Positions 3,427 to 64,000 of a DNA stretch of 64,000 nt are shown one piece after another. Position numbers and translations under genes: made by a program. The stretch is from positions 2,981 through 66,980 of the forward strand of contig CAZYCE010000006.1 in assembly GCA_964645605.1 (NCBI GenBank), read 5' to 3'. The stretch is from an uncultured Gammaproteobacteria bacterium. GTDB lineage: Bacteria; Patescibacteriota; Microgenomatia; UBA8517. Every line of letters begins with the position of its first letter. Positions within the stretch are counted from its first letter, which is position 1. Below the pieces are notes generated by a model. The model was not told where the DNA came from. It did no database searches and was given only the letters and a program-made list of their open reading frames with translations.

Positions 3427-3837
3427 ATGCAACCTACGCGTAAAAGTGCTTTACCATTAGTGATCGGTGCGTTTCTGGTTGTTTTGGCAGGAGTTGTCGC
3501 TGCCTGGTTAATTTCATCCAAACTGCTTAACGGCGGGACAAATGAAAAGGCGGCTCCCGGGGTTAAAGTTACTTCGACGGAGGCAGGGTCGCTTGATCCG
3601 AATGTCAGATACGATACGGCAACAGGCGTTTTGGAAGAAGGAGGCATTGGAGGGGAAGGGACGTTTCACCTTGCACGCAATGGCGGCAGTACCGCAAAAG
3701 ATGTTGCCCTTACTTCAAGTACTGTAGATCTGGGTTCGTTTTTGGGTAAGACCGTAAATATTTGGGGGGAAACAATTTCTTCAACAAGACCGGGCGGCTG
3801 GCTTATGGATGTAGCTAAGATTCAAATAGCAGAATAA
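3427..3837 (+). CDS. Hypothetical small secreted/membrane-anchored protein
   Basis: N-terminal hydrophobic helix followed by a Gly/Thr-rich domain; start could be GTG 3421 or ATG 3427. Confidence 0.4.
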   Translation: MQPTRKSALPLVIGAFLVVLAGVVAAWLISSKLLNGGTNEKAAPGVKVTSTEAGSLDPNVRYDTATGVLEEGGIGGEGTFHLARNGGSTAKDVALTSSTVDLGSFLGKTVNIWGETISSTRPGGWLMDVAKIQIAE

Positions 3838-50009: not shown

Positions 50010-51659
50010 ATGAAGAAGAAACTTTATCCGTTTTTTTTGGGGCTGATTCTTATTACCGCTTTCTTTCTGAGAATTTACAAAGTTACTTCCATTCCCCCTT
50101 CCCTAAACTGGGATGAAGTTTCAATAGGTTACAATGCCTATTCCATCCTTAAAACCGGACGCGACGAGTGGGGGGTAAAATTCCCGTTAAATTTTAAATC
50201 GTACGGAGAGTATAAACTTCCCGGGCAGATTTATGCCTCGATACCGGCGATTGCCGTTTTTGGATTAAATGAATTTGGGGTAAGGATTACTCCCGTAATT
50301 TACGGCACACTAAGCGTTTTATTGCTTTATCTTTTAGTCCAGGAATCTTTTGGTAAAAAAGAAATATCCTTAATGTCAGCCTTTTTCCTGGCGGTTTCCC
50401 CTTGGCACATACAGCTGACTAGGGCATCTTTAGAGTCTTCTTTTGCGCTTTTCTGGGTGGTGATGGGAGTTTGGTTTTTCCTTAAAGGTTTGAAAAAACC
50501 AAAGTGGCTGGTTTTTTCAATGCTTCCTTTTGCGGTTTCCGTTTATACCTACAATAGTGCCCGCGCCTTCATTCCGCTTTTTCTTTTTGCCTTGGTGATT
50601 ATTTATAGAAAGTATTTCCGGAAAGTTAAAAAATGGTTTTTTGCGGCGGGGATTTTGTTTGCCGTTCTGATGGCTCCTTTGATTCCGATGGTTGTTTCGG
50701 GAGAAGCCTCCGCCAGATACAAACTTGTAAGCATCACCGATGAAAAGGGTTTGATTCCCAGAATTGAAGAGAGAAGAAACAATTCAACTTTGCCGTCTAC
50801 CGTCAACAAAATGATAAACAATAGATATACGTATGTAAGTTACTATTTTGCAAGAAATTATTTGTCCCATTTTACTCCGGACTTTCTTTTTATCCACGGA
50901 GCAGGACATAGACAGCACCATGTTCAGGGGGTGGGAGAACTTTACTGGTTCCAGGCCCCATTCATTATTTTGGGGATCTATTATTTGTTAAAGAAAAAAA
51001 ATCCCAATTTGAAAGTTCTTGTTCCGTGGTTTTTACTGGCGTTTGTTCCGGTATCCGTAACAAATGACAGTATTCCGAATGCCTTAAGGACCTTAAATGC
51101 GGTTCCTGTTTACCAAATTTTTACGGCCTTGGGAATTTATTATGCTTATAAGCTGATCAAGAATAAAAAAGTTTTTAATGTACTTATCGGTGCGGTAACG
51201 GCTCTATTCTTAATTAATTTTGCCGTTTATTTTACTAACCTTTTTGTATATTATCCGCTCAGGTACTCCCGGGATTGGCAATATGGCAATAAAGAAGCTG
51301 TCGAATATATAAAAAACCACCGGGATAATTACGATTTAATTGTTTACAGCCGTACCTATGGCGAACCGCATATGTTCACTTTGTTTTATCTTGGTTATGA
51401 TCCCGCCAAGTTTCAAAATAGCCCAAACTTAGACAGGTTTGAAACATACGATTGGGTTAGGGTTTTGCGTTTTGATAAATTTTATTTTCCGGATCTGGGG
51501 GATGCGGGTACAAAGTATCAGGATGTAGTTAATGCGAATCCCGGCCAGAGAATTCTTTTTATAGGTAAACCTCAGGATTTTCCTGCGGAAGCGGCAGTGC
51601 TTGAACAAATTAATTTTCTTGACGGCACCGGCGCCTTCAAAATAGTTGAAAAGATATGA
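50010..51659 (+). CDS. GT-C-fold membrane glycosyltransferase, paralog family A
   Basis: PSLNWDEVSIGYNAYSILKTGRDEWGVKFPLNF; GAGGT Shine-Dalgarno-like sequence 5 nt upstream; C-terminal DGTGAFKIVEKI. Confidence 0.65.
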   Translation: MKKKLYPFFLGLILITAFFLRIYKVTSIPPSLNWDEVSIGYNAYSILKTGRDEWGVKFPLNFKSYGEYKLPGQIYASIPAIAVFGLNEFGVRITPVIYGTLSVLLLYLLVQESFGKKEISLMSAFFLAVSPWHIQLTRASLESSFALFWVVMGVWFFLKGLKKPKWLVFSMLPFAVSVYTYNSARAFIPLFLFALVIIYRKYFRKVKKWFFAAGILFAVLMAPLIPMVVSGEASARYKLVSITDEKGLIPRIEERRNNSTLPSTVNKMINNRYTYVSYYFARNYLSHFTPDFLFIHGAGHRQHHVQGVGELYWFQAPFIILGIYYLLKKKNPNLKVLVPWFLLAFVPVSVTNDSIPNALRTLNAVPVYQIFTALGIYYAYKLIKNKKVFNVLIGAVTALFLINFAVYFTNLFVYYPLRYSRDWQYGNKEAVEYIKNHRDNYDLIVYSRTYGEPHMFTLFYLGYDPAKFQNSPNLDRFETYDWVRVLRFDKFYFPDLGDAGTKYQDVVNANPGQRILFIGKPQDFPAEAAVLEQINFLDGTGAFKIVEKI

Positions 51660-53170
51660 AAAAAGAACGGATTTTTTTATTTCTAATTCTTGGATTTTTC
51701 TTGTTTACAAGGTTTTATAAAATTAGCCAAATCCCGCCCTCCGTTTACTGGGATGAAGCTTCGATCGGGTATAACGCCTATTCCGTTTTACAGGACGGCC
51801 GGGATGAGTGGGGGAATTTTCTGCCTCTTCATTTTAGGGCTTTTGGTGAATTTAAATTACCGGTTTATATTTATTCCGTCGCAATATCGGAAAAATTATT
51901 CGGATTGAATTCTTTTTCTGTCCGTCTTCCGTCCGTTATTTATTCCGCCTTTTCCCTGATTCTGGTTTACCTTATTTCCAAAAAGATTTTTAGTGGAAGC
52001 TCGGGACTCCTTTCTGCCTTGGTTTTTTCGGCTTGTCCTTGGTATTTTATCTTTAGCCGTACGGGTTATGAAGTATCTGCCGGTTTATTCTTTTTCCTTT
52101 TGGGAACATACTTTTTCCTGAAAACCGAGAAAAAAAATTACTTTTTCCCGTTTGGCATTTTGTCTTTTATTCTTTCTTTTTATAGTTACAACTCATTTCG
52201 CATCCTCATTCCTATTTTCTTACTGGTTTTCGGTTTGGCCTTTATCTTAAGAAAGGATGTAAAAACAAAAGCTAAATTATTTTATATAGTTTCCGGGATA
52301 GTTTTGTTTCTATTGGTTTTGTTTCCCGTTTATCGTCTTTACAAATTTGATGCCGGTGGCGCGCGCTTGACACAGGTACAAGTCTCGGGAGCGGCGGATG
52401 TATTTAAAAATTATCTTTCCCATTTTTCCCCGCAATTTCTTTTTAATAGCGGAGACTCCAACTCCAGGAGTAGTGTTCCCGGTTTTGGAGAGCTTTTTCC
52501 GGTGATTGCTCCATTTTTGATAATCGGTACTTTTGTTATATTCAAGAAAAAGCAAAAATTTTGGTGGTTGCCGTTTTTGGCAATATTGCTAGGTCCGATT
52601 CCCGCCGCGGTCACCAGGGAGTCTCCCCATGCCTTAAGGGCAATCTTAATGATTCCCTTTCTTTCGATGGTTGCCGGAGTGGGTATTGATAGTTTTGCAG
52701 GTTTTTTCGGAAGAGCTAAAAAGATGTTTATCTTTGGAGTGCTTTTCTTGCTTGCCGTATCTTTTAAAAATTATTTTATCGATTTTACAACAAAATATTC
52801 TTCTGATTCGTCTGCCCAGTGGCAATTTGGCTACAAGAAAATTTTTGAGGATTATCTTGCCGATTTTGCCGAATATGACAAGGTTGTAATTTCCGATGCC
52901 TATGCCCAGCCTTATATTTTTGGGCTTTTTTATCAAAAATATGACCCGGGATATTTCAGACAAAGTGTTGTCTACAATACGGTTGATCAATGGGGCTTTT
53001 CGACCGTCAAAAGTTTTGATAAATTCCTGTTTAAGAAAGTAACAGCGGACGATTTATCCGAAAACTCAATAGTTTTTGCAACCGTACAAGACAAAATAAA
53101 CGATGAAAAACCGGTGGAAGAAATTAAGAACCCCGACGGGACAACTGCTTTTTGGGTGTACACAAAATGA
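51656..53170 (+). CDS. GT-C-fold membrane glycosyltransferase, paralog family A
   Basis: PSVYWDEASIGYNAYSVLQDGRDEWGNFLPLHF; C-terminal NPDGTTAFWVYTK; ATGA overlap with upstream gene. Confidence 0.65.
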   Translation: MKKERIFLFLILGFFLFTRFYKISQIPPSVYWDEASIGYNAYSVLQDGRDEWGNFLPLHFRAFGEFKLPVYIYSVAISEKLFGLNSFSVRLPSVIYSAFSLILVYLISKKIFSGSSGLLSALVFSACPWYFIFSRTGYEVSAGLFFFLLGTYFFLKTEKKNYFFPFGILSFILSFYSYNSFRILIPIFLLVFGLAFILRKDVKTKAKLFYIVSGIVLFLLVLFPVYRLYKFDAGGARLTQVQVSGAADVFKNYLSHFSPQFLFNSGDSNSRSSVPGFGELFPVIAPFLIIGTFVIFKKKQKFWWLPFLAILLGPIPAAVTRESPHALRAILMIPFLSMVAGVGIDSFAGFFGRAKKMFIFGVLFLLAVSFKNYFIDFTTKYSSDSSAQWQFGYKKIFEDYLADFAEYDKVVISDAYAQPYIFGLFYQKYDPGYFRQSVVYNTVDQWGFSTVKSFDKFLFKKVTADDLSENSIVFATVQDKINDEKPVEEIKNPDGTTAFWVYTK

Positions 53171-54768
53171 GAAAGTATCTAAGCTGCATAATTCTTTTTA
53201 CTATTTTTATAGGAGCGCTTTTTTTAAGAATTTATAAGTTGGATCAAGTTCCTGCTTCCCTGAATTGGGACGAGGTGGATGCGGGCTATAATGCCTACAC
53301 TATTGCGAATTGGGGTGTTGATGAATGGGGCCGTAAGTTTCCTCTGGTTTTTCGCTCGTTTTATGACGATAAACATCCGGTCCACATTTATATAACAGCG
53401 GTTTTTGTTAAGTTTTTTGGACTCAGTGATTTTACAACGCGTCTTCCCAGCGCGATTTTTGGAGCTTTAGGGGTCTTAGTTGTTTTTTATCTGGGCAGAC
53501 GTTTATTCAAAAATGATTTGCCTGCATATTTTGCGGCAATTTTTCTGGCGGTCTCACCATACCATCTTCAGTTCTCCAGAGGACTTTGGGAAGTTAACTT
53601 CGCCTTCTTTTTCTTTATATTGGGGCTTCTGTTTTTTTACCTCGGGAGAGATAAAAATAGATGGTTCTTCCCGTTTTCTTTTTTAGGGTTCGGACTTTCA
53701 ATGTACTCATATCATTCGGCCAAAGTCGTGGTTCCTCCGATGATAATCCTTCTTTGCATTTTATATTTCAAGGATTTGATAAAAAACAAAAAAGCCCTTT
53801 TACTCAGTTTTATTGTTTTAGCCGTTTTTATAGCAGGTTTTATTTTTAATCCCGGATTATTGGGTTTCGCCCGTGCCGAACAAAACCGATTTCCCGAAGG
53901 GTCAATAAAGGAAACTTATCTTTATCAAAAAACGGGGAATAGATACTTGGCTACTTTAGAAATTGCAGCCGGAAATTATACAAAATACTTTACTCCGGAT
54001 TACCTTTTTGTACACGGCGATCAAAACCCGCGGAATTCGGTTAAAGTGTTCGGGGAGTTCTATAAAATTGAAGCACTTTTTATTGCCGCCGGAATTGTCT
54101 TTATGTTGGTAAGGCCAAGAAAGGAATGGCTCGTTCTTGCCGTCTGGCTTGCGCTTGCACCGATTCCGGGTGCTCTTTCAGGTTTCACTCCAAACGCAGC
54201 CAGAGGGCTTTTTATGATGGGTAGCATGCATCTTGTTGGCGCATACGGGCTTTATAGCTTAGCGAATTTATTCAGAAACAAGACGGTTCGGGGTGCCGTT
54301 GTAGTTGCCCTTCTGGCCCCCCTTTTTTGGGAATTTTCAAATTATCTTAACTATTACTACACAAATTATTACAAGAAAGACGCTATTGAGTGGCAATACG
54401 GCATGAAACAGATTGTTGCCTACATTAAGAACAATCCCTACTATGACAAAATATATATGACCAAAGAAAGACAACAACCATATATATTTATCCTGAATTA
54501 TCTGGAGTATCCCGTAAAAAAATACCTGGCCTCGGTTCGGTATGACGAAAGTCAGAGTAAAAGTTACAATGTAGCCAGATCCTTCGGAAAATTCCAGTTC
54601 TCGGATTGGAATACGGTTGAGAGTTACCCCGCCCCTTATGTGCTTTATGTTCTTACTCCAAGCCAGTATGATGGGTTAAGGTACAGACTGATGTTTGATG
54701 TGGTTGATTTGATAAAATATCCCGACGGATCAGATGCTTATTTTTTGGTAACCGCCAAAGTATATTAA
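53152..54768 (+). CDS. GT-C-fold membrane glycosyltransferase, paralog family A
   Basis: ASLNWDEVDAGYNAYTIANWGVDEWGRKFPLVF; C-terminal YPDGSDAYFLVTAKVY. Confidence 0.65.
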   Translation: MGVHKMRKYLSCIILFTIFIGALFLRIYKLDQVPASLNWDEVDAGYNAYTIANWGVDEWGRKFPLVFRSFYDDKHPVHIYITAVFVKFFGLSDFTTRLPSAIFGALGVLVVFYLGRRLFKNDLPAYFAAIFLAVSPYHLQFSRGLWEVNFAFFFFILGLLFFYLGRDKNRWFFPFSFLGFGLSMYSYHSAKVVVPPMIILLCILYFKDLIKNKKALLLSFIVLAVFIAGFIFNPGLLGFARAEQNRFPEGSIKETYLYQKTGNRYLATLEIAAGNYTKYFTPDYLFVHGDQNPRNSVKVFGEFYKIEALFIAAGIVFMLVRPRKEWLVLAVWLALAPIPGALSGFTPNAARGLFMMGSMHLVGAYGLYSLANLFRNKTVRGAVVVALLAPLFWEFSNYLNYYYTNYYKKDAIEWQYGMKQIVAYIKNNPYYDKIYMTKERQQPYIFILNYLEYPVKKYLASVRYDESQSKSYNVARSFGKFQFSDWNTVESYPAPYVLYVLTPSQYDGLRYRLMFDVVDLIKYPDGSDAYFLVTAKVY

Positions 54769-55656: not shown

Positions 55657-56394
55657 ATGAATCTTCAAAATAAAAATATTGTGGTAACAGGCGCCACCGG
55701 AGGGATTTGCAGGGAACTTGTCAAAAACTTAGACAGTGAGGGAGCCAATTTAATTTTGATTTCCAAATCGGCCGATGAACTTGAAAATCAAACCGGGCAG
55801 CTTCAAAGTAAATCCTTTTCTTTTGCCTGCGATTTTACCAAACCCGGCGAGGTTGAGGATTTGGCGAAAAAAATCTCAAAGCAGTTTAAATCCGTCGACG
55901 TATTAATTAATGCGGCCGGGATTGGGGTATATAAATCCCTTGAAGAAGAAACTCTCGAGGAATGGAACAACTCGATGAATATTAATGTGACCTCGCAATT
56001 TTTGATGAGTAAATACCTTATTAAAAATTTAAAGAAGGCCCGAGGGGCGGTCGTAATAAATATCGGATCCGGTGCCGGAGTTATTCCCATGGCGGGCAGA
56101 AGTATTTATTGTGCCACAAAATTTGCGGTAAGGGGTCTGACCCTCAGTTTGGCTGAAGAATTTAGACGTACTTCGGTAGACTTTTGTCTGATAACCCTGG
56201 GAAGCGTGCTTACGGGTTTTGGCCCCATGAGTTTTGAGGAAAAGAAAAAGGAGATGGAAAAGGGGAAGAAGGCGTATTTTACGCCGGATTGGGTAGCCAA
56301 GAAGCTTATTTCGATAATTAAGGATGACGATAGGAGGAGAGAATATACACTTTTCCCTTCAAATTATGCCTCCGAGTGGCAGAAACCCTCATAA
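55657..56394 (+). CDS. Short-chain dehydrogenase/reductase (SDR) family oxidoreductase
   Basis: VVTGATGGICREL (TGxxxGxG), NAAG, YCATK (YxxxK). Confidence 0.8.
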   Translation: MNLQNKNIVVTGATGGICRELVKNLDSEGANLILISKSADELENQTGQLQSKSFSFACDFTKPGEVEDLAKKISKQFKSVDVLINAAGIGVYKSLEEETLEEWNNSMNINVTSQFLMSKYLIKNLKKARGAVVINIGSGAGVIPMAGRSIYCATKFAVRGLTLSLAEEFRRTSVDFCLITLGSVLTGFGPMSFEEKKKEMEKGKKAYFTPDWVAKKLISIIKDDDRRREYTLFPSNYASEWQKPS

Positions 56395-56426
56395 ATCAAA
56401 TCTTTTTATATAGGCGGTTTATTAAA

Positions 56427-57047
56427 CTACTTTTCTCCCAGAAATATTCTTGGGTTTACCGGAATTCCGAATATATTAATTTGAAAATGAAGATGCGGTC
56501 CTGTTGCCCAACCGGTTTGCCCCTCTGCCCCGATTAGGTCACCGGGTTCTACAATTTGACCCGCAGATACATAAATATTACTGAGATGTGCGTAAATTGA
56601 TTGGATTCCGTCTCCGTTGTCTATTATAACGTGCTTTCCGAAACCCCACGATATTTTTCCCGCGTATATAACTTTCCCCTCCATAAACGCCCTAACCGGG
56701 TCTCCTATCCGGTGTTCCGGATTTGCGATGTCTATTCCTGTATGTAAAGGCTGGTAGGGAAGATTGCTTTGACCAAACTCAAGAGTGATCACGCCTTTTA
56801 CGGGCCAGACTATTTTTTTATCAATTGTGGCGACTATCGATCCGTTCAGCGGATTATAGATCTCTATCCTTTGGGTTTTTGAATTAAAAGATGCGAGTTT
56901 ATCTGAAACCATGTCTATTCCGGTTTGGGTTAGGGTAACTACGGCAATAACCGGCATCGCCAATATAAAAAGAAAAGCCAGAAAGACGTAGGTCAGCTCC
57001 TTTCTGAATGACCAAACGGCGGCGATACCGCCGGGAGATATTCCCAT
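56427..57047 (-). CDS. Membrane-anchored M23/LytM-family peptidoglycan endopeptidase
   Basis: HTGIDIANPEH (HxxxD) and GQTGWATGPHLHFQI (HxH) zinc-binding motifs; N-terminal TM; its start codon directly abuts the VirB4 stop. Confidence 0.85.
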   Translation of the reverse strand: MGISPGGIAAVWSFRKELTYVFLAFLFILAMPVIAVVTLTQTGIDMVSDKLASFNSKTQRIEIYNPLNGSIVATIDKKIVWPVKGVITLEFGQSNLPYQPLHTGIDIANPEHRIGDPVRAFMEGKVIYAGKISWGFGKHVIIDNGDGIQSIYAHLSNIYVSAGQIVEPGDLIGAEGQTGWATGPHLHFQINIFGIPVNPRIFLGEK

Positions 57048-58802
57048 TTAAGTGTAGATTTCCCTGGGATCGGTGGTTAAAAGAGGATGTTCTTTTTCGG
57101 ATGCGACTACTTTAATTGCCACATGGTTCTGGTCCGCAATAATAAGTGCCTCACCTTTGTCACAAGTTAAGAGGAACTTTTGTTCATATTCGCTGAGATT
57201 AAATTCGCCGGCAACTTTTTTGATTGTGGTCGTGTCCTGTTTCATCAAAATACGGAGTGCGGATTGGGAAGCAATGGCCCGCCCGTACTCCTGAGCCAGA
57301 AAATCCTGAGCCTGCTGGGATATGATGGTTACCCCCAGATAGTACTTTCTGGCACGTCTGACAAGCCCTGCCATGAATCTTGCGCTTTCCTCCTGGGCCA
57401 GAAGGATCCAACCCTCATCAATGACAAGTATTCTTTTTCTGGGGTTGGTTTTAACTTGCGATTGAACAAAGTTGGCCAGAACCAACATCATAATCGGCCT
57501 GATGGTTTCGCTTAAGTCTTTTATATCAAACACCACAAGTCGGTTATCCAATTCAATGTTTGTCTGGGAGTCAAACATTGACGAAAGGGAACCTTTAATA
57601 AATCTTTCGAGCCGGTCACAAAGATTTTTTTGCCCCATTTTCTTAAGGACCCTATAGAAATCCTTAAGCAGTGGATACTTTTTGTGTTTTTCTTTCTTTG
57701 TTTTTATTGACCAGCCGAACTTTTTATAAGTTGCAATCAGGGCTTTATCGGTAATTGCTTTTTCCTCATCATTAAGAGTTCCCACCATGAGGGAAATTAT
57801 TTCGGTCAGATTTTGGATATGTTCGGCCAGATTGTTTTCTCCGGTGAAACCGGTGAGGGCAAAATCAAAAGGGTTAATCTTCTCCAAAGACCGAGCGGAG
57901 AGCTTTATGTAGGTTCCGGAAACACTGGAAGCAAGCTGTTTGTATTCCCTTTCCGGGTCGATGACGATAACGCTGGTTCTTTGCATAAGATGTCTCAAAA
58001 TTTCCACTTTTGCGGTATAACTTTTTCCGGAACCCGATTGGGCAAATAGGATTGAGTTGGCATTGTTTAGTGAAAATCTGTCAACTATGACCAGGGAATT
58101 GTTTGATCGGTTAATGCCATATAGGATGCCGGTTTCCTGAACGAGTTCCGATGAAATAAAAGGAAAAGTCAAAGCGGCACTTGAACTGTCCAGGTTTCTT
58201 TTTTGGGCAAGCAAATTTTCTCCCCGGGGAAGAATTGATTGCAGTGCTTCGATTTGTTGGAATGTTGCAATCTTTGTGTAAAAGAGCCTTGTGGACATCA
58301 TTGTTTCGAGAAGTTTTGTAATTTTATCCAGATCAGGCAAAGTATCGGCGGAAATGGCCAGATAGATTGAAACTTGAAAAAGTTTTTGCTGACCTCTTTG
58401 GATTTTGTCTCTAAGCTCCGTAGCCGATTCCAAAGGATCGGTTAATTCCGATCCGAAAACACGGCCTTCTTTTTGATAGGTTCTTTTTGTCGATTCAAGT
58501 TCGGTAATTTTCCTATTTAATTTCGGCAGAGCCGTTAATGGGTCCACTTGCTCAATGTGGTAGCTGATGTCGATGTTGTGATTGAAATTGACAAGCATAT
58601 TAAGCCAGCCGGTTGAGGCGATATAGGGGTAACCGGAAATAAACAGGCTTCGCACAAACTTGTTTTCAATCTGAATATAGGTTGGTTCTTCGGCCAGACC
58701 GGAATAGGAAATAAGATCGACCTGATCTTCCTCCCCGAAATCAAACTGAAAAGATTTCTTTAAAGTTTCCTTTTGTGATATTTTGCCCTTTTTGAATTTC
58801 AT
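57048..58802 (-). CDS. virB4: VirB4/TrbE/TraC-family type IV secretion ATPase, C-terminal ATPase portion
   Basis: Walker A AQSGSGKS, Walker B ILVIDEGW, VIVIDPEREY, VRSLFISGYPYIASTGWLNMLVNF region typical of CagE/TrbE/VirB4. Confidence 0.8.
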   Translation of the reverse strand: MKFKKGKISQKETLKKSFQFDFGEEDQVDLISYSGLAEEPTYIQIENKFVRSLFISGYPYIASTGWLNMLVNFNHNIDISYHIEQVDPLTALPKLNRKITELESTKRTYQKEGRVFGSELTDPLESATELRDKIQRGQQKLFQVSIYLAISADTLPDLDKITKLLETMMSTRLFYTKIATFQQIEALQSILPRGENLLAQKRNLDSSSAALTFPFISSELVQETGILYGINRSNNSLVIVDRFSLNNANSILFAQSGSGKSYTAKVEILRHLMQRTSVIVIDPEREYKQLASSVSGTYIKLSARSLEKINPFDFALTGFTGENNLAEHIQNLTEIISLMVGTLNDEEKAITDKALIATYKKFGWSIKTKKEKHKKYPLLKDFYRVLKKMGQKNLCDRLERFIKGSLSSMFDSQTNIELDNRLVVFDIKDLSETIRPIMMLVLANFVQSQVKTNPRKRILVIDEGWILLAQEESARFMAGLVRRARKYYLGVTIISQQAQDFLAQEYGRAIASQSALRILMKQDTTTIKKVAGEFNLSEYEQKFLLTCDKGEALIIADQNHVAIKVVASEKEHPLLTTDPREIYT

Positions 58803-58803
58803 A

Positions 58804-59472
58804 TTATTTGCCCTCCAAAAGAGCCCGGACCACCTCGCCTTTAAGCTCTTGGGTTTTTATTTGATCGGGGTTATAAAAGCTATAGAAAAGATCAAGAATT
58901 TCCAGGCTTTCCAGGATTTTAGATTTCATTCCCAGCTTTTCCAAACCTTTTATTACAATATCGCGGTTCAATTCGATCTGTTCTTTGATAAATTTAAAGT
59001 CGCTTCCGTGGTCGCTCCCTTTATAAGGGATGATCACATAGAAACGGCGGGAGAGAATTTTATTTCCGGCGATAAGATTTTTAACAAATAGGGAATAGTT
59101 ATCGAGTTGATTTTTGTATACCTTTTCTTTTTCCCCGTCCCTCATTTTCGATATTTGTTCCAGATACCTTTCAATATCGATTTCCCTTACCCTTATTAAA
59201 ATTTGAAGCGAGGTCGGAAGGGAATTGAGAAAATTCTCAAATTCATCAATAATTACATCCTGCTCATCTTCGCTTTTGAGTTCAAAGTTGACCGAAGAGG
59301 TTTCAATAATTGACCTGTATTCGTTACACGGTAAGACCAAAATTCCGTCCCTGACCTCTTTTATTTGAATTTGCCGTCTGGAACTTACTTTATTTTTCGA
59401 TTTGGTCCAAAACAACATTAAACCCTCCTTTCTTTTTGATCTTGAACGTAATATTTTCCTTGTCTTTTTCAA
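58804..59472 (-). CDS. VirB4-family N-terminal domain encoded as a separate ORF
   Basis: IKEVRDGILVLPCNEYRSIIETSSVNFELKSEDEQDVIIDEFENFLNSL matches the start of VirB4/TrbE proteins; its stop lies 1 nt before the ATPase ORF start and in a different frame; 222 + 584 aa is about a full-length VirB4. Confidence 0.6.
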   Translation of the reverse strand: MKKTRKILRSRSKRKEGLMLFWTKSKNKVSSRRQIQIKEVRDGILVLPCNEYRSIIETSSVNFELKSEDEQDVIIDEFENFLNSLPTSLQILIRVREIDIERYLEQISKMRDGEKEKVYKNQLDNYSLFVKNLIAGNKILSRRFYVIIPYKGSDHGSDFKFIKEQIELNRDIVIKGLEKLGMKSKILESLEILDLFYSFYNPDQIKTQELKGEVVRALLEGK

Positions 59473-59890
59473 AAATGCTTTGCTCCCTTACTCCGATCGG
59501 TTGTAGACGGGACTTTCTTTTCGATTCGGAGGGTCTAACCGATTTGGCGTGTTTTTTCCCGGGGTCAACTATGCCTGCCTCTCTCAGATAGGCGTCATTT
59601 TTATTGAATACGTAGTATTTAGGCCGGATGTTGTAGCGCAAGATAAGGATCAGCCAGTTAATTATTAATTTCTCATCAATTTTTAACGATAATATAAACG
59701 AAATTATGAGAACGGGTATTGTTAAAACCAGCTTATACCAGGCGATTGACATAGTTGGAACAAAAAGTATGTAAACTATACCTGCCCAAAAAACAGGAAA
59801 CATCAGAATTAGAATTTGCGTCAAACTTAAGTTCCCGGCAATTTTGTCTTCAACCGTCGTAATTTGAGCCGGAATTATAGTTGTCTTCAT
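59390..59890 (-). CDS. Small integral membrane protein, VirB3-like by position and topology
   Basis: Two to three TM helices in the N-terminal half, charged C-terminal tail; located immediately upstream of the VirB4 ORFs. Confidence 0.3.
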   Translation of the reverse strand: MKTTIIPAQITTVEDKIAGNLSLTQILILMFPVFWAGIVYILFVPTMSIAWYKLVLTIPVLIISFILSLKIDEKLIINWLILILRYNIRPKYYVFNKNDAYLREAGIVDPGKKHAKSVRPSESKRKSRLQPIGVREQSIFEKDKENITFKIKKKGGFNVVLDQIEK

Positions 59891-61179
59891 GGCTTTTCTG
59901 CCCTTTTATAAACTTTTGTTAACTCATTCTTTATGGTACTTTCTTTGGAAAACTCTTCGGTACCGGAACTTACCACGTTGACTACCTGTCTGCCTATACC
60001 TTTGAAGGTTTCATTACGTGAGGCTGAAAGAAGCATTTCCATCGCAAGCGATGGCGTTTTTAAGAGAGTTGCGAAAAGGCCGATAGCTACGGCAATTGAA
60101 ATAAGTGAACCATTGGAATTGCCCGGAATTGTTAAAAATGCTGAGGCCAGTTGGATGATCACAACATGGATGAAAACCGTAAATACGCTAACAAAGTAGC
60201 TTTTGACGGCCATTTCGGCAAATCCCGATAATTTTGGAATAGACCACAAAAGAAACACAAAAGGCGACAGAGCGCCGGCAATGGAAATTAAGATAAGTCT
60301 GCTTATATAGAATAAGAGAAGAACCACCGCAATTATTAGGAAAAGCATCAGGAAAATCAGGGTAATGAGGGGAGTTTCTCCCGTAATCAAACTCGCCGGG
60401 TTGATTGCATCCAAAATCCAGGCCTGATTTAAGCCGCCCGTTGCGTTTAACACGGTTTTTACCAGAACATTTGCTGTTGTTATCACATAATCCGTCAGAA
60501 ATAGTGAGACGTTAGCGCCGAGGAATGCGATACCTATTCTCGGTAGGATTATTCTGGATTCAAGCTCCTCAAAACCTAAGGTGGAGGCACTCATTATTCG
60601 AAATCCCAAAAGTGCCGTCACTATTACGAAAAGAGAATCAACGATGCCCAGACTGATCAGCCAAAAGTTGCTGATCACAGAATTTTCCAAGAGGCTTGGG
60701 GTAGTTGTAAGAAAACCGATAATACCATCGACAATCGGTTTTGTGGCACTTTGCACGATATTTTGCATAAAACTTGAAACGGCGTCTATTAAGACCTGCG
60801 TCAGGCCGTCGGTTGGGGTTACCGGGGATATTTGTGTAATCGGAATAACCGATCCTGATTCGGTTGGGGCATTGGAGCCGACCGCACCTCTGAAAACTGA
60901 AATTATTAAACCCGATGCGAGAACAACAACCAGACCGATAAGGGCGTTTCTGATGGTTTTTTTCGCATCCTCAAGACGGTCGGGACTACCGGATGAGGTT
61001 ATGTAGCCAATTCCGCCCTTGATGATGAAAAAAACCGCAGCAACGGAGGCGATTGTTGTAATTATTCCGAGAGTATTATTGGTGTAATCGGTTATTCCGG
61101 AAGGGACGTCGGCTGCCGCAACCGGTGTGGCAAATAGAAAGAAAAGAACTATTGTTAGAAAAAAGATAACCTTTTTCAT
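59887..61179 (-). CDS. Fusion protein: N-terminal VirB2/TrbC-like pilin domain plus a C-terminal VirB6/TrbL-like polytopic membrane domain
   Basis: Signal peptide MKKVIFFLTIVLFFLFATPVAAAD; residues ~40-95 (GGIGYITSSGSPDRLEDAKKTIRNALIGLVVVLA) are near-identical in pattern to the standalone pilin at 61226-61558; followed by at least 6 TM helices. Confidence 0.5.
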   Translation of the reverse strand: MKKVIFFLTIVLFFLFATPVAAADVPSGITDYTNNTLGIITTIASVAAVFFIIKGGIGYITSSGSPDRLEDAKKTIRNALIGLVVVLASGLIISVFRGAVGSNAPTESGSVIPITQISPVTPTDGLTQVLIDAVSSFMQNIVQSATKPIVDGIIGFLTTTPSLLENSVISNFWLISLGIVDSLFVIVTALLGFRIMSASTLGFEELESRIILPRIGIAFLGANVSLFLTDYVITTANVLVKTVLNATGGLNQAWILDAINPASLITGETPLITLIFLMLFLIIAVVLLLFYISRLILISIAGALSPFVFLLWSIPKLSGFAEMAVKSYFVSVFTVFIHVVIIQLASAFLTIPGNSNGSLISIAVAIGLFATLLKTPSLAMEMLLSASRNETFKGIGRQVVNVVSSGTEEFSKESTIKNELTKVYKRAEKP

Positions 61180-61225
61180 TTAAGTTATGTTCAGACTTTT
61201 TCATAGGCAGGACCTTTTTTAAACC

Positions 61226-61558
61226 TTATTGCATTCCGCCAAAAGCGGATGTTGCAAGTTGTGTGACAATATTTGACAAAACAAAAGCAGCAAGAACTAT
61301 TACAAGTCCGACCACCGAATAACGTATAGTTCTTTTGGATTTATCAAGCGACTCAGGATTACCTGAACTGGTAATGTATCCGATACCTCCCCACACCAAA
61401 AATCCGGTTGCCGTAATTCCTGCCAGGGTTACCAGAATTTGAATAATACTCTGAATAAAGGTTTGAATTTTGGTGACGTCGGTGGATTGTGCGTAGACAC
61501 TAGTCGCGTAAATTAGTGAGGTAATTAAAACCGATTGTAGAAAAATTAATTTCTTCAT
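61226..61558 (-). CDS. VirB2/TrbC-like conjugative-type pilin
   Basis: 110 aa; signal peptide MKKLIFLQSVLITSLIYATSVYAQS, two hydrophobic helices separated by GGIGYITSSGNPESLDKSKRTIR; GGGGTGA Shine-Dalgarno-like sequence 8 nt upstream of ATG 61558. Confidence 0.55.
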   Translation of the reverse strand: MKKLIFLQSVLITSLIYATSVYAQSTDVTKIQTFIQSIIQILVTLAGITATGFLVWGGIGYITSSGNPESLDKSKRTIRYSVVGLVIVLAAFVLSNIVTQLATSAFGGMQ

Positions 61559-61801
61559 CTTATTCACCCCCATTCGTAATTAAAAAGGTTTCACTTTAAC
61601 CAAAATATGAAATCGTTGAAATGTATACCAGAGTTACCCATATATGTCAACAGGGTAATTTATTTATTCATAGATCTTATACTTATGAGGATTTGGCAAG
61701 AATGTAAAAATGGTCGGTCGCTTAGTAGACTTATTTAGAACAAAGCAATTTTTAATAGAAATAAATTATGATGAAGTTAGAAAATTACTGGAAAAACATT
61801 G

Positions 61802-62509
61802 CTATTCTCTATAGGAGCATTTAGTTTCACCAAAATCCTTTTTAAGGGTACCTAAATCCAAAGTGGTATATATATCGATGGCTGAGACACCTCCCTTATC
61901 TTTATTATTTAAATAATCTGGACAGTTTTCTTCATTGGCTACCTGATTCGTAGGTTCCCAATAAGAAACGGTGTTATTTAAAATAATTGGTTTACCTTCT
62001 CCTCCTGCATACATACCTTGATAAATTTTTGATTTTTTATCTAAATCATAAACCATTAGCCCTCTTATTCCGGCTGACGAGCCACTATCCAGTACGAGAA
62101 AGTTGTTATATAGGCCAATACAAAAAGTTCTTTCCTCTTTTATTATAAAATCTTGGTTTCCGTTATTATATTTAACCAAAAACTCACTTGTTGCATTATT
62201 TTGTGACGGTTCTTTAATTGTTATTGAATACTTGTCGTTGGCAGAGCAGTCGCTAACAACGATAGGTTCAGTATTGGGTTCGTCGGATAAAGCTGGTGTG
62301 GGGGTTGTAATAGGCACTGTTGTAAGTAGTGATATTTGTTTTTTCAGTTGTATATTTTGATAAACAAGATAGCCGATGGAGGCAACTGCCAGTATGTGGA
62401 TAGCAATCATTAGTGCTAAAGACTTCTTGGTCTTCTGTGGTTGAATGGGAGATGTAGTAGGCGGAGTTTGTGGAATAGCCGGTTGTGTTTGGGTCAGACT
62501 TTCATTCAT
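61802..62509 (-). CDS. Hypothetical bitopic protein with a Pro/Thr-rich N-terminus, one TM and a Cys-containing extracytoplasmic domain (VirB8-like topology)
   Basis: PAIPQTPPTTSPIQPQ N-terminus, TM LALMIAIHILAVASIGYLVY, ~170-aa C-terminal domain with 5 Cys. Confidence 0.4.
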   Translation of the reverse strand: MNESLTQTQPAIPQTPPTTSPIQPQKTKKSLALMIAIHILAVASIGYLVYQNIQLKKQISLLTTVPITTPTPALSDEPNTEPIVVSDCSANDKYSITIKEPSQNNATSEFLVKYNNGNQDFIIKEERTFCIGLYNNFLVLDSGSSAGIRGLMVYDLDKKSKIYQGMYAGGEGKPIILNNTVSYWEPTNQVANEENCPDYLNNKDKGGVSAIDIYTTLDLGTLKKDFGETKCSYRE

Positions 62510-63468: not shown

Positions 63469-64000
63469 CTATTTGAGGAGCGAATCGGCAAGGCGAATAG
63501 ATTCACGAGTAAAAAACGTTTTTACTTCACTCCATTTAATATCCGCGAGCATTGTTGGCATGACAGTTTCCTTTTCCGCATCCTCAAAATAATCAAGTGA
63601 TCGCAAGGTCGCATACAGGCGGTCGCCTGAGATATTGTATTTTTTTTGATACAAGCTAATCATCTCTTGTAATGAAAATTTCTTTGCAAGAACATAGACA
63701 TCAATAAAATCGCGGCGGGTACCTCTATCCTCAATGGCATGGATTTTCATTGCGGCAATGTCAGATAAACTTGCCAAATGAAGTCCTTCAAATGGCACGG
63801 TGGGCTCAAGGAGTGGATACTTGTAGTGAAATATACTAAACTTCGTTTTTCCAATCGTTCCCCAAACTGTCCACTTAGCAGTACCGGCTTCGTGGAACGA
63901 TGTATGGGTGGCAAGTTTTCGAGAAAGTTTTTCTTCGTCAAACGTTTCGAGTGTAAAAAAATCCAGATCAACCGAAATGCGGTGTCCCATCTGTAGAGCC
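63469..64000 (-). CDS. AbiEii/DUF1814-family nucleotidyltransferase (type IV TA toxin-like), N-terminus beyond the window edge
   Basis: ALQMGHRISVDLDFF (R.S.DlDF motif) and GTRRDFIDVYVL (R.rDlyDl motif); frame remains open through position 64000. Confidence 0.6.
   Translation of the reverse strand, partial: ALQMGHRISVDLDFFTLETFDEEKLSRKLATHTSFHEAGTAKWTVWGTIGKTKFSIFHYKYPLLEPTVPFEGLHLASLSDIAAMKIHAIEDRGTRRDFIDVYVLAKKFSLQEMISLYQKKYNISGDRLYATLRSLDYFEDAEKETVMPTMLADIKWSEVKTFFTRESIRLADSLLK

Follow-up and report, generated by a model that had tools for sequence, protein, structure and literature searches.

The present study concerns a 64,000-nucleotide (nt) stretch of contig CAZYCE010000006.1 (assembly GCA_964645605.1, assigned by GTDB to the Microgenomatia), hereafter referred to as the window, and two adjacent open reading frames (ORFs) on its minus strand that together correspond to VirB4, the ATPase of type IV secretion systems (T4SSs). 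The upstream ORF is TrsD-like and is termed ORF-N, and the downstream one, a VirB4 that is short at its N terminus, is termed ORF-C. We conclude, with a probability of about 0.87, that the two are bona fide, separately translated and coupled cistrons of a Patescibacteria monoderm T4SS operon, the products of which would reassemble non-covalently into a VirB4 equivalent.

A first-pass annotation of the window had described VirB4 as two ORFs separated by a TAA stop, one nucleotide and a change of frame, and had offered three origins for this arrangement, namely a genuine split gene, a recent frameshift creating a pseudogene, or a single-base sequencing error. Direct reading of the minus strand (...TTG GAG GGC AAA TAA T ATG AAA TTC...) confirmed the geometry. 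The assignment of both ORFs jointly to VirB4 was likewise upheld, with ORF-C scoring above the cutoff of the VirB4 model NF045971 and ORF-N falling on N-terminal positions of the same profile. Of the three origins it is the genuine split gene that proved right, the split being uniform in the orthologues whose loci we aligned and compared.

The junction in the window

In the list of predicted ORFs the pair appears as 58804..59472 (minus strand, 222 amino acids (aa), TTG start) and 57048..58802 (minus strand, 584 aa, ATG start). The TAA stop given previously for the upstream ORF is correct, but the length of 222 aa runs from the first TTG; the ATG at 59418, which is the start in alignment A1, in the identical database protein P0001 and in every aligned orthologue, gives a protein of 204 aa. 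The ATG of ORF-C lies in the +1 frame relative to ORF-N and is preceded, 9 nt to its 5' side, by a GGAGG Shine-Dalgarno (SD) motif; the ORF-C frame is open for 17 codons 5' of this ATG. The junction is A/T-rich (AAATAATATGAAA), and the string 'caaataatatgaaattc', quoted in the first-pass annotation as plus-strand sequence, is actually the minus-strand reading. Within the subclade to which the window belongs the tail of ORF-N is two residues shorter (…LLEGK* versus …NNYV*, alignment A1), so the ORF-C ATG falls just past the stop and the two genes do not overlap.

Conservation of the two-gene arrangement

Homologue lengths were taken from the best 120 relatives of each ORF. All of these ORF-N homologues were 199-215 aa long (65-100% identity) and all of the ORF-C homologues 570-636 aa (77-100% identity). 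A profile search with ORF-N against 1.84 billion cluster representatives returned 2,577 clusters at E<1e-3; among the best 150 representatives at 50% identity a single one was long (734 aa), the others measuring 97-398 aa. To these protein-level data we added 80 loci from species-representative genomes, including members of the Daviesbacteria, Roizmanbacteria, Shapirobacteria, Woykebacteria, Collierbacteria, Levybacteria, WWE3 and others, which span many projects and assemblers. Three of the 80 were cut by contig ends and left out, and in each of the 77 assessable loci an ORF-N orthologue was found directly upstream of an ORF-C orthologue. Identity to the window at codon positions 1, 2 and 3 was 0.68, 0.82 and 0.40, respectively, for ORF-N and 0.76, 0.88 and 0.40 for ORF-C, and this pattern indicates that purifying selection acts on both halves.

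Seen on its own, a stop followed by one nucleotide and an ATG in another frame has the look of a recent frameshift lesion in a single virB4 gene, which would leave ORF-N as a decaying remnant and ORF-C re-initiating by accident, and real cases of damage exist elsewhere, both in locus L056 and in a contig from a cluster of fused VirB4 proteins (described below). Against such an origin, the split is shared by all 77 assessable loci and by hundreds of homologues in the database, with identities as low as 65%, third codon positions are near saturation with second positions 82-88% identical in both halves, and no conserved sequence is missing at the break; we accord it practically no credence. An artificial splitting of one ORF by a single-base sequencing or assembly error, for which the A/T-rich composition of the junction might speak, is just as hard to maintain. 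The Logan assembly of run SRR13007709 has an identical junction, with two mismatches to the window in 2,910 nt, and homologous junctions that differ in sequence but follow the same two-gene logic recur in 77 other loci from different projects and assemblers, two of which (L047 and L048) independently carry TAAtATG. Because the split is conserved among orthologues, selection is not relaxed in either half and the second assembly is identical, the pseudogene and sequencing-error options of the first-pass annotation are both effectively excluded.

How a lesion or assembly error looks in these loci is shown, by contrast with the window, by L056:3330-3930 (CAZJIO010000039.1). Here an internal frameshift near residue 125-135 divides the ORF-N orthologue, whose two tblastn segments differ in frame, and a stop lies at 3750; the VirB4 junction itself is normal (ATGTTTAA). 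Either a mistake in assembly or genuine pseudogenisation is the probable cause.

Two further observations were made on the loci collected. Several Microgenomates-type genomes contain two TrsD-like/VirB4 pairs, sometimes on one contig (L013/L021 on JBBDPM010000004.1, L026/L035 on CAJQIG010000001.1, L004/L029 on JAJYIG01... and L050/L068 on JAJYKS01...), each copy sharing ~74-78% identity with the protein of the window; the pairs have the appearance of paralogous T4SS operons housed in tiny genomes. Many contigs with this Patescibacteria operon also bear unexpected public labels, including 'uncultured Gammaproteobacteria/Pseudomonadales bacterium', 'Methylococcaceae', 'Candidatus Micrarchaeota archaeon' and 'Nitrosocosmicus' (L003, L005, L011, L017, L028, L032 and others, as well as P0216), which probably reflects placeholder or wrong taxonomy, or binning contamination, in public records of metagenome-assembled genomes (MAGs).

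Junction geometry and predicted coupling

The constant feature of the junction among the 77 loci is an ATG lying between -17 and +4 relative to the ORF-N stop, the stop itself varying between TAA, TAG and TGA. In the dominant form, present at 66 loci, the ATG lies at -5 (ATGNNTAA/TAG/TGA, an 8-nt overlap). It lies at -8 in six loci, at -14 and at -17 in one locus each, at -1 (ATGA) in one, and at +4 (TAAnATG) in two loci plus the window. Junctions of more distant Patescibacteria read ATGA (L085), TAATG (L086, a complete Nomurabacteria genome) and ATGGATAA (L087); between them they show both frame offsets, with SD-like motifs upstream. In all of these relatives a conserved ATG overlaps the upstream stop or lies within a few nt of it, an arrangement from which coupled overlapping cistrons are predicted. 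ORF-C would be expressed by translational coupling to ORF-N, through either reinitiation or SD-driven initiation, and such coupling could keep the two products in proportion.

An SD-like motif as the general signal for coupling was considered and rejected, being present at only 23% of the 77 junctions (8.7% background), so the strong GGAGG of the window is not a family feature.

The same junctions bear on the possibility of programmed +1 frameshifting at the ORF-N stop, by which tRNA-Lys would move from AAA to AAU at AAA-UAA-U and a fused VirB4 would be made besides or instead of the two proteins. ORF-C does lie in the +1 frame in 76/77 Microgenomates loci (L056 counted from its second alignment segment), and in the window an SD-like GGAGG stands upstream of the stop, as in prfB, with the 17 open codons before the ATG as a further point in favour. 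However, no slippery codon is conserved, GTT, GCT, GAT, GAC, GTA, GCG, ATT, TAC, AAT and others all occurring as the last sense codon; many loci have an ORF-C frame that is open for no more than 14 nt ahead of the stop; L080, L085 and L086 have the other frame offset (ATGA, TAATG); and the ATG is invariably kept, though frameshifting needs none. Some ORF-N homologues (P0312, P0367) moreover have long low-complexity tails before the stop. A frameshift-stimulating RNA was sought in the window, where shuffled sequence folded just as well as 58720-58850 (z = -0.07), and an Rfam scan of 56000-62000 returned no match. Programmed frameshifting is, in our judgement, very unlikely.

Position of the break within VirB4

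The two proteins match complementary parts of full-length VirB4 models. On NF045971 (the CD1110-family monoderm VirB4 model, 752 positions) ORF-N matches positions 11-172 (E 6e-11) and ORF-C positions 194-734 (366.7 bits, cutoff 325), without overlap, and ORF-C thus lacks a complete N-terminal domain (NTD) in its own polypeptide. On NF045975, which models the VirB3-VirB4 fusion of Mycoplasma integrative and conjugative elements (ICEs), the PrgI-family product encoded upstream of ORF-N matches 2-154, ORF-N 100-284 (E 5e-10) and ORF-C 292-890. Judged by these profile matches, ORF-N and ORF-C tile VirB4 end to end, with nothing lost and nothing duplicated.

The break lies inside the NTD, since the C-terminal domain (CTD) as delimited in the solved Thermoanaerobacter VirB4 (PDB 4AG5) begins at ORF-C residue 223, and the NTD of R388 TrwK spans residues 15-400 (PMC9259494). 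Residues 1-222 of ORF-C constitute the second half of the NTD, and residues 223-576, which match 4AG5 with E 2e-45, a RecA-like CTD whose translation contains Walker A (SGSGKS) and Walker B (VIDEGW) motifs. ORF-N is accordingly only about the first half of the NTD. The first-pass annotation had taken ORF-N for the N-terminal domain of VirB4 and had placed the break between that domain and the ATPase portion; its N-terminal placement stands, but ORF-N is not the whole NTD, given the 222 residues of ORF-C that precede the CTD, and the break sits within the NTD, in a poorly conserved linker.

A fused, single-chain VirB4 was found in one small Patescibacteria clade (P0296, 734 aa, and P0390, 738 aa; 76% mutual identity), where it occurs on several contigs, including contigs of 729 kb and 774 kb. 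Residues 2-187 of P0296 align to ORF-N and residues 199-732 to ORF-C. The fused-form operons (L082:4001-6205 and L083:4001-6217) have the same gene order with no separate N gene, and the closest split relative of P0296 is L085, which has the ATGA junction. In an AlphaFold2 model of P0296 the predicted local distance difference test score (pLDDT) stays under 50 over residues 172-204, the stretch that contains the break, and this fits a flexible linker at that point. The whole-chain model has a low predicted template modelling score (0.44) and was excluded from any inference on inter-domain packing. One contig in the 90% identity cluster of P0296 encodes pieces of 155 aa and 556 aa instead, and looks like a lesion or an error.

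A search of PDB sequences with the ORF-N profile gave no credible match, the best being a nucleoside diphosphate kinase (E 0.03). When an AlphaFold2 model of ORF-N (pLDDT 67) was compared by fold with the PDB, R388 TrwK/VirB4 took all of the 14 top places (E 6e-5 to 4e-3), and the likeness of ORF-N to VirB4 structures was therefore found by fold comparison only. The Pfam family 'TraC-like' (PF26593) is listed in the precomputed annotation of P0001, of all 120 ORF-N homologues and of the counterparts in L085-L087; a local Pfam scan of ORF-N returned neither this family nor any other at E<=0.01. Similar orders of secondary structure in residues 1-171 and 205-350 of P0296 raised the idea that the VirB4 NTD is an internal duplication split between its repeats, but an hhalign comparison of the ORF-N homologues with the first 240 residues of the ORF-C homologues did not support it (E 0.41, probability 0.1%).

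A different interpretation of the pair would see in ORF-N a paralogue of the VirB4 N terminus that has diverged and acts independently, as an accessory factor, and in ORF-C a self-sufficient short VirB4. In PMC12102498 TrsD is listed among proteins of unknown function, and its homologues in Gracilibacteria are noted as unlinked to virB4; ORF-C by itself exceeds the curated VirB4 cutoff, and some ORF-N homologues carry extra tails of up to ~200 aa. Yet ORF-C and the TrsE protein of the staphylococcal plasmid pSK41 are both without profile positions ~1-190, and ORF-N covers these positions with neither overlap nor duplication. The fused clade, moreover, has one copy of the N-module, covalently joined in the expected order, all three pieces are joined in the Mycoplasma profile NF045975, and to strict adjacency is added the predicted translational coupling. 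We regard an accessory role as unlikely.

Proposed assembly and its strength

Under the favoured reading of two coupled cistrons, ORF-N would be the detached first ~180-200 residues of VirB4, and ORF-C a VirB4 without exactly that piece. The detached piece presumably corresponds to TrsD/TraD in pGO1/pSK41-type plasmids and to the 'TraC-like' family of Pfam. With PrgI/VirB3 as membrane anchor, the two polypeptides may reassociate non-covalently, forming a hexamer that powers the T4SS in the way a full-length VirB4 does. ORF-N would give the VirB3-binding and subunit-pairing surface, as the NTD does in R388, and ORF-C would supply the remaining NTD and the ATPase ring. In the R388 structure, VirB3 wraps the NTD of VirB4, and the NTDs mediate VirB4 dimerisation (PMC9259494).

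Several points weigh against this reading. The association of ORF-N with ORF-C and with PrgI is argued solely from fusions, synteny and the R388 structure. ORF-N shows weak similarity both to NF041427, the curated model of TrsD (21.7 bits, cutoff 200, E 1.4e-4, positions 32-200 of 201), and to pSK41 TrsD (hhalign E 3e-4, probability 39%). The structure models are of moderate confidence (pLDDT 64-67), and SD-like motifs are scarce at the junctions, as reported above. The N-piece might also have some independent role, since the Gracilibacteria homologues of TrsD are unlinked to virB4 according to PMC12102498.

Falling short of the NF041427 cutoff, ORF-N is a remote homologue and not a strict member of TrsD/TraD, and we therefore label it "TrsD-like" or "PF26593 TraC-like". 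Its context is that of a TrsD-type protein, ~200 aa long (204 aa) and encoded 1 nt upstream of an N-terminally short VirB4.

A bolder proposal, which we put forward tentatively and hold to be doubtful, is that TrsD-like proteins in general are the detached N-terminal half of the VirB4 NTD, engaging VirB3 and pairing subunits, and that pGO1-type Firmicutes plasmids and almost all Patescibacteria have an ancient, selected split in common, the form of 734-738 aa being a secondary re-fusion. If this were true, a membrane platform of PrgI plus N-module and the ATPase ring could assemble or exchange independently, and the 'function unknown' TrsD/TraD family would gain a concrete role with a testable interface.

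The surrounding operon

ORF-N and ORF-C belong to a monoderm (MPF_FATA-like) T4SS operon of Patescibacteria (Table 1). The order proposed for the Microgenomates-type operon is pilin, pilin/VirB6-like, PrgI (VirB3), ORF-N, ORF-C and M23 hydrolase. ORF-C thus stands in a T4SS setting with VirB3-like, VirB6-like and hydrolase genes, in the same order as in the related loci L082-L087.

Table 1 Features of the T4SS operon in the window
Feature	Coordinates	Strand	Evidence and remarks
VirB2/TrbC-type T4SS pilin, 115 aa	61226..61573	-	First recognisable gene of the operon; Pfam T4SS_pilin E 1e-13, TrbC E 3e-11
Pilin-domain and polytopic membrane protein, 430 aa, VirB6/TrbL-like component	59887..61179	-	Pfam T4SS_pilin E 4.5e-10, residues 28-96
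PrgI/TcpE-family small membrane protein, 166 aa, VirB3 equivalent	59390..59890	-	Pfam PrgI E 6e-6, TcpE E 5e-3
ORF-N, TrsD-like / 'TraC-like' (PF26593), 204 aa	58804..59418	-	Corresponds to ~first 180 residues of full-length monoderm VirB4
ORF-N/ORF-C junction	58800..58816	-	SD GGAGG 58816-58812; TAA 58806-58804; T 58803; ATG 58802-58800
ORF-C, N-terminally short VirB4 ATPase, 584 aa	57048..58802	-	Pfam P-loop_TraG, AAA_10, DUF87
M23 peptidase, 206 aa, cell-wall hydrolase, VirB1-like role	56427..57047	-	Pfam Peptidase_M23 E 3e-29

All genes of the operon are on the minus strand and tightly packed. Between the VirB6-like and PrgI genes there is an overlap of 4 nt (59887-59890), and between the PrgI gene and ORF-N one of 29 nt (59390-59418); these overlaps are followed by the 1-nt spacer between ORF-N and ORF-C and by a 0-nt spacer between the ORF-C stop and the M23 peptidase gene. 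Packing of this kind is typical of translationally coupled cistrons. The pilin gene holds the same position in L082-L087, and the peptidase slot is occupied in these loci by M23 or CHAP hydrolases. Positional counterparts of the 430-aa protein in L082, L083, L086 and L087 also match TrbL_3, and a pilin-VirB6 fusion, with an N-terminal VirB2/T4SS_pilin domain and a polytopic region (T4SS_pilin plus TrbL_3 in the relatives), appears to be conserved across this type of operon.

The overlap between PrgI and N-module genes is also exactly 29 nt in two distant Patescibacteria lineages (L086:2372-2400 and L087:2373-2401), and only 4 nt in L085 and the fused loci. P0243, a 357-aa protein on a JGI contig of 1,527 nt, is an apparent fusion of a PrgI/VirB3-like protein with a TrsD-like N-module, its similarity to the window PrgI amounting to 41% identity over 103 aa; we gave it no weight because it is a singleton on a 1.5-kb contig and may result from a one-base error across the 29-nt overlap. 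In the fused-form loci L082 and L083 a VirD4-like gene follows the M23 peptidase gene.

Elsewhere in the window

Three consecutive, paralogous glycosyltransferase genes of the PMT_2 (dolichyl-phosphate-mannose-type) family lie on the plus strand at 50010-54768 and encode proteins of 549, 504 and 538 aa. They are followed by genes for a family-2 glycosyltransferase and a short-chain dehydrogenase, and the block converges on the T4SS operon. Near the window end, at 63469-63990 on the minus strand, a 173-aa ORF matches only the C-terminal part of an AbiEii nucleotidyltransferase toxin (positions 132-207 of 238), and may be the truncated remnant of a toxin-antitoxin system.

Comparison with known systems

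The closest known systems are the chromosomal T4SSs of Patescibacteria (the candidate phyla radiation), described by Quiñonero-Coronel et al. 2025 (PMC12102498) and, for Southlakia epibionticum (SEML1_0006-0019), by Wang et al. 2023 (PMC10633639), which come from the same phylum-level clade as the window. The systems share with the window a gene set of VirB2-like pilins, VirB6-like protein, PrgI/VirB3, TrsD-like protein, VirB4 and hydrolase, with the TrsD-like gene directly upstream of virB4 and no relaxase nearby, and nothing essential differs, so that the window is one more instance. Its proteins are 65-88% identical to many Patescibacteria MAG proteins. According to PMC12102498, no T4SS component is more abundant in Patescibacteria than TrsD, with 2,272 homologues of which 1,664 adjoin virB4; the homologue in S. 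epibionticum is essential, the homology of TrsD and VirB4 is stated, and no VirB3-VirB4 fusions are reported in the phylum. TrsD is not named in the main text of Guglielmini 2014 (PMC4027160). On the evidence of PMC12102498, the two-gene form of TrsD-like protein plus short VirB4 is already known and is the norm for Patescibacteria, the single-gene form being a rare exception; the first-pass comparison of the pair with a 'canonical 800-aa VirB4' is for that reason misleading in this lineage.

The same gene order is found on the Staphylococcus plasmids pSK41/pGO1 (pGO1 subclass of MPF_FATA), which encode trsB (a pilin-like CagC protein), trsC, trsD (227 aa), trsE (672 aa, DUF87), a membrane protein and the CHAP hydrolase TrsG. 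TrsE of pSK41, encoded directly downstream of trsD, maps to NF045971 positions 183-730 and ORF-C starts at 194, which places the break at the same point. We take TraD-TraE of pIP501 to be the counterpart of TrsD-TrsE. ORF-N resembles TrsD only remotely, as detailed above, and the stop of trsD in pSK41 is separated from the start of trsE by 14 nt, in contrast to the overlap in the Patescibacteria relatives. pSK41/pGO1 are furthermore conjugation systems of plasmids with relaxase and coupling protein, whereas the system in the window is chromosomal and without an adjacent type IV coupling protein or relaxase.

Single-chain VirB4 proteins of monoderms (NF045971; Thermoanaerobacter, 4AG5) and TrwK of R388 have an ATPase domain homologous to that of ORF-C, and ORF-N and ORF-C cover the monoderm profile in order; the difference is that the chain in the window is cut after about residue 190, within the NTD, into two polypeptides. 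The VirB3-VirB4 fusions of Mycoplasma ICEs (Mbov_0397 family, NF045975), on which the PrgI protein, ORF-N and ORF-C of the window map in order along one profile, show PrgI/VirB3, N-module and ATPase acting as one unit. They represent the opposite evolutionary solution, with one polypeptide in place of three.

In PMC12102498, or those parts of it on which we rely, TrsD is treated as a separate component of unknown function; they contain no statement that Patescibacteria VirB4 lacks exactly the part supplied by TrsD, and describe neither the overlapping stop/start junction nor a rare fused clade. The present analysis adds the exact complementarity of the two proteins, the break point shared with pSK41 TrsE, the stop/start geometry with its variants, and the rare fused clade. 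In the one tractable species of Patescibacteria the epibiotic lifestyle requires the T4SS, and the tiling of ORF-N and ORF-C on VirB4 profiles, the break in pSK41 TrsE and the naturally fused clade provide the basis for a working hypothesis in which TrsD would be the missing N-terminal piece of VirB4. This is a small step beyond published knowledge and not a discovery, the arrangement being ordinary for the lineage. For annotation it means that the junction should be neither flagged as a pseudogene nor repaired as a frameshift, and that suitable names for the two genes would be TrsD-like VirB4 N-terminal module and short VirB4.

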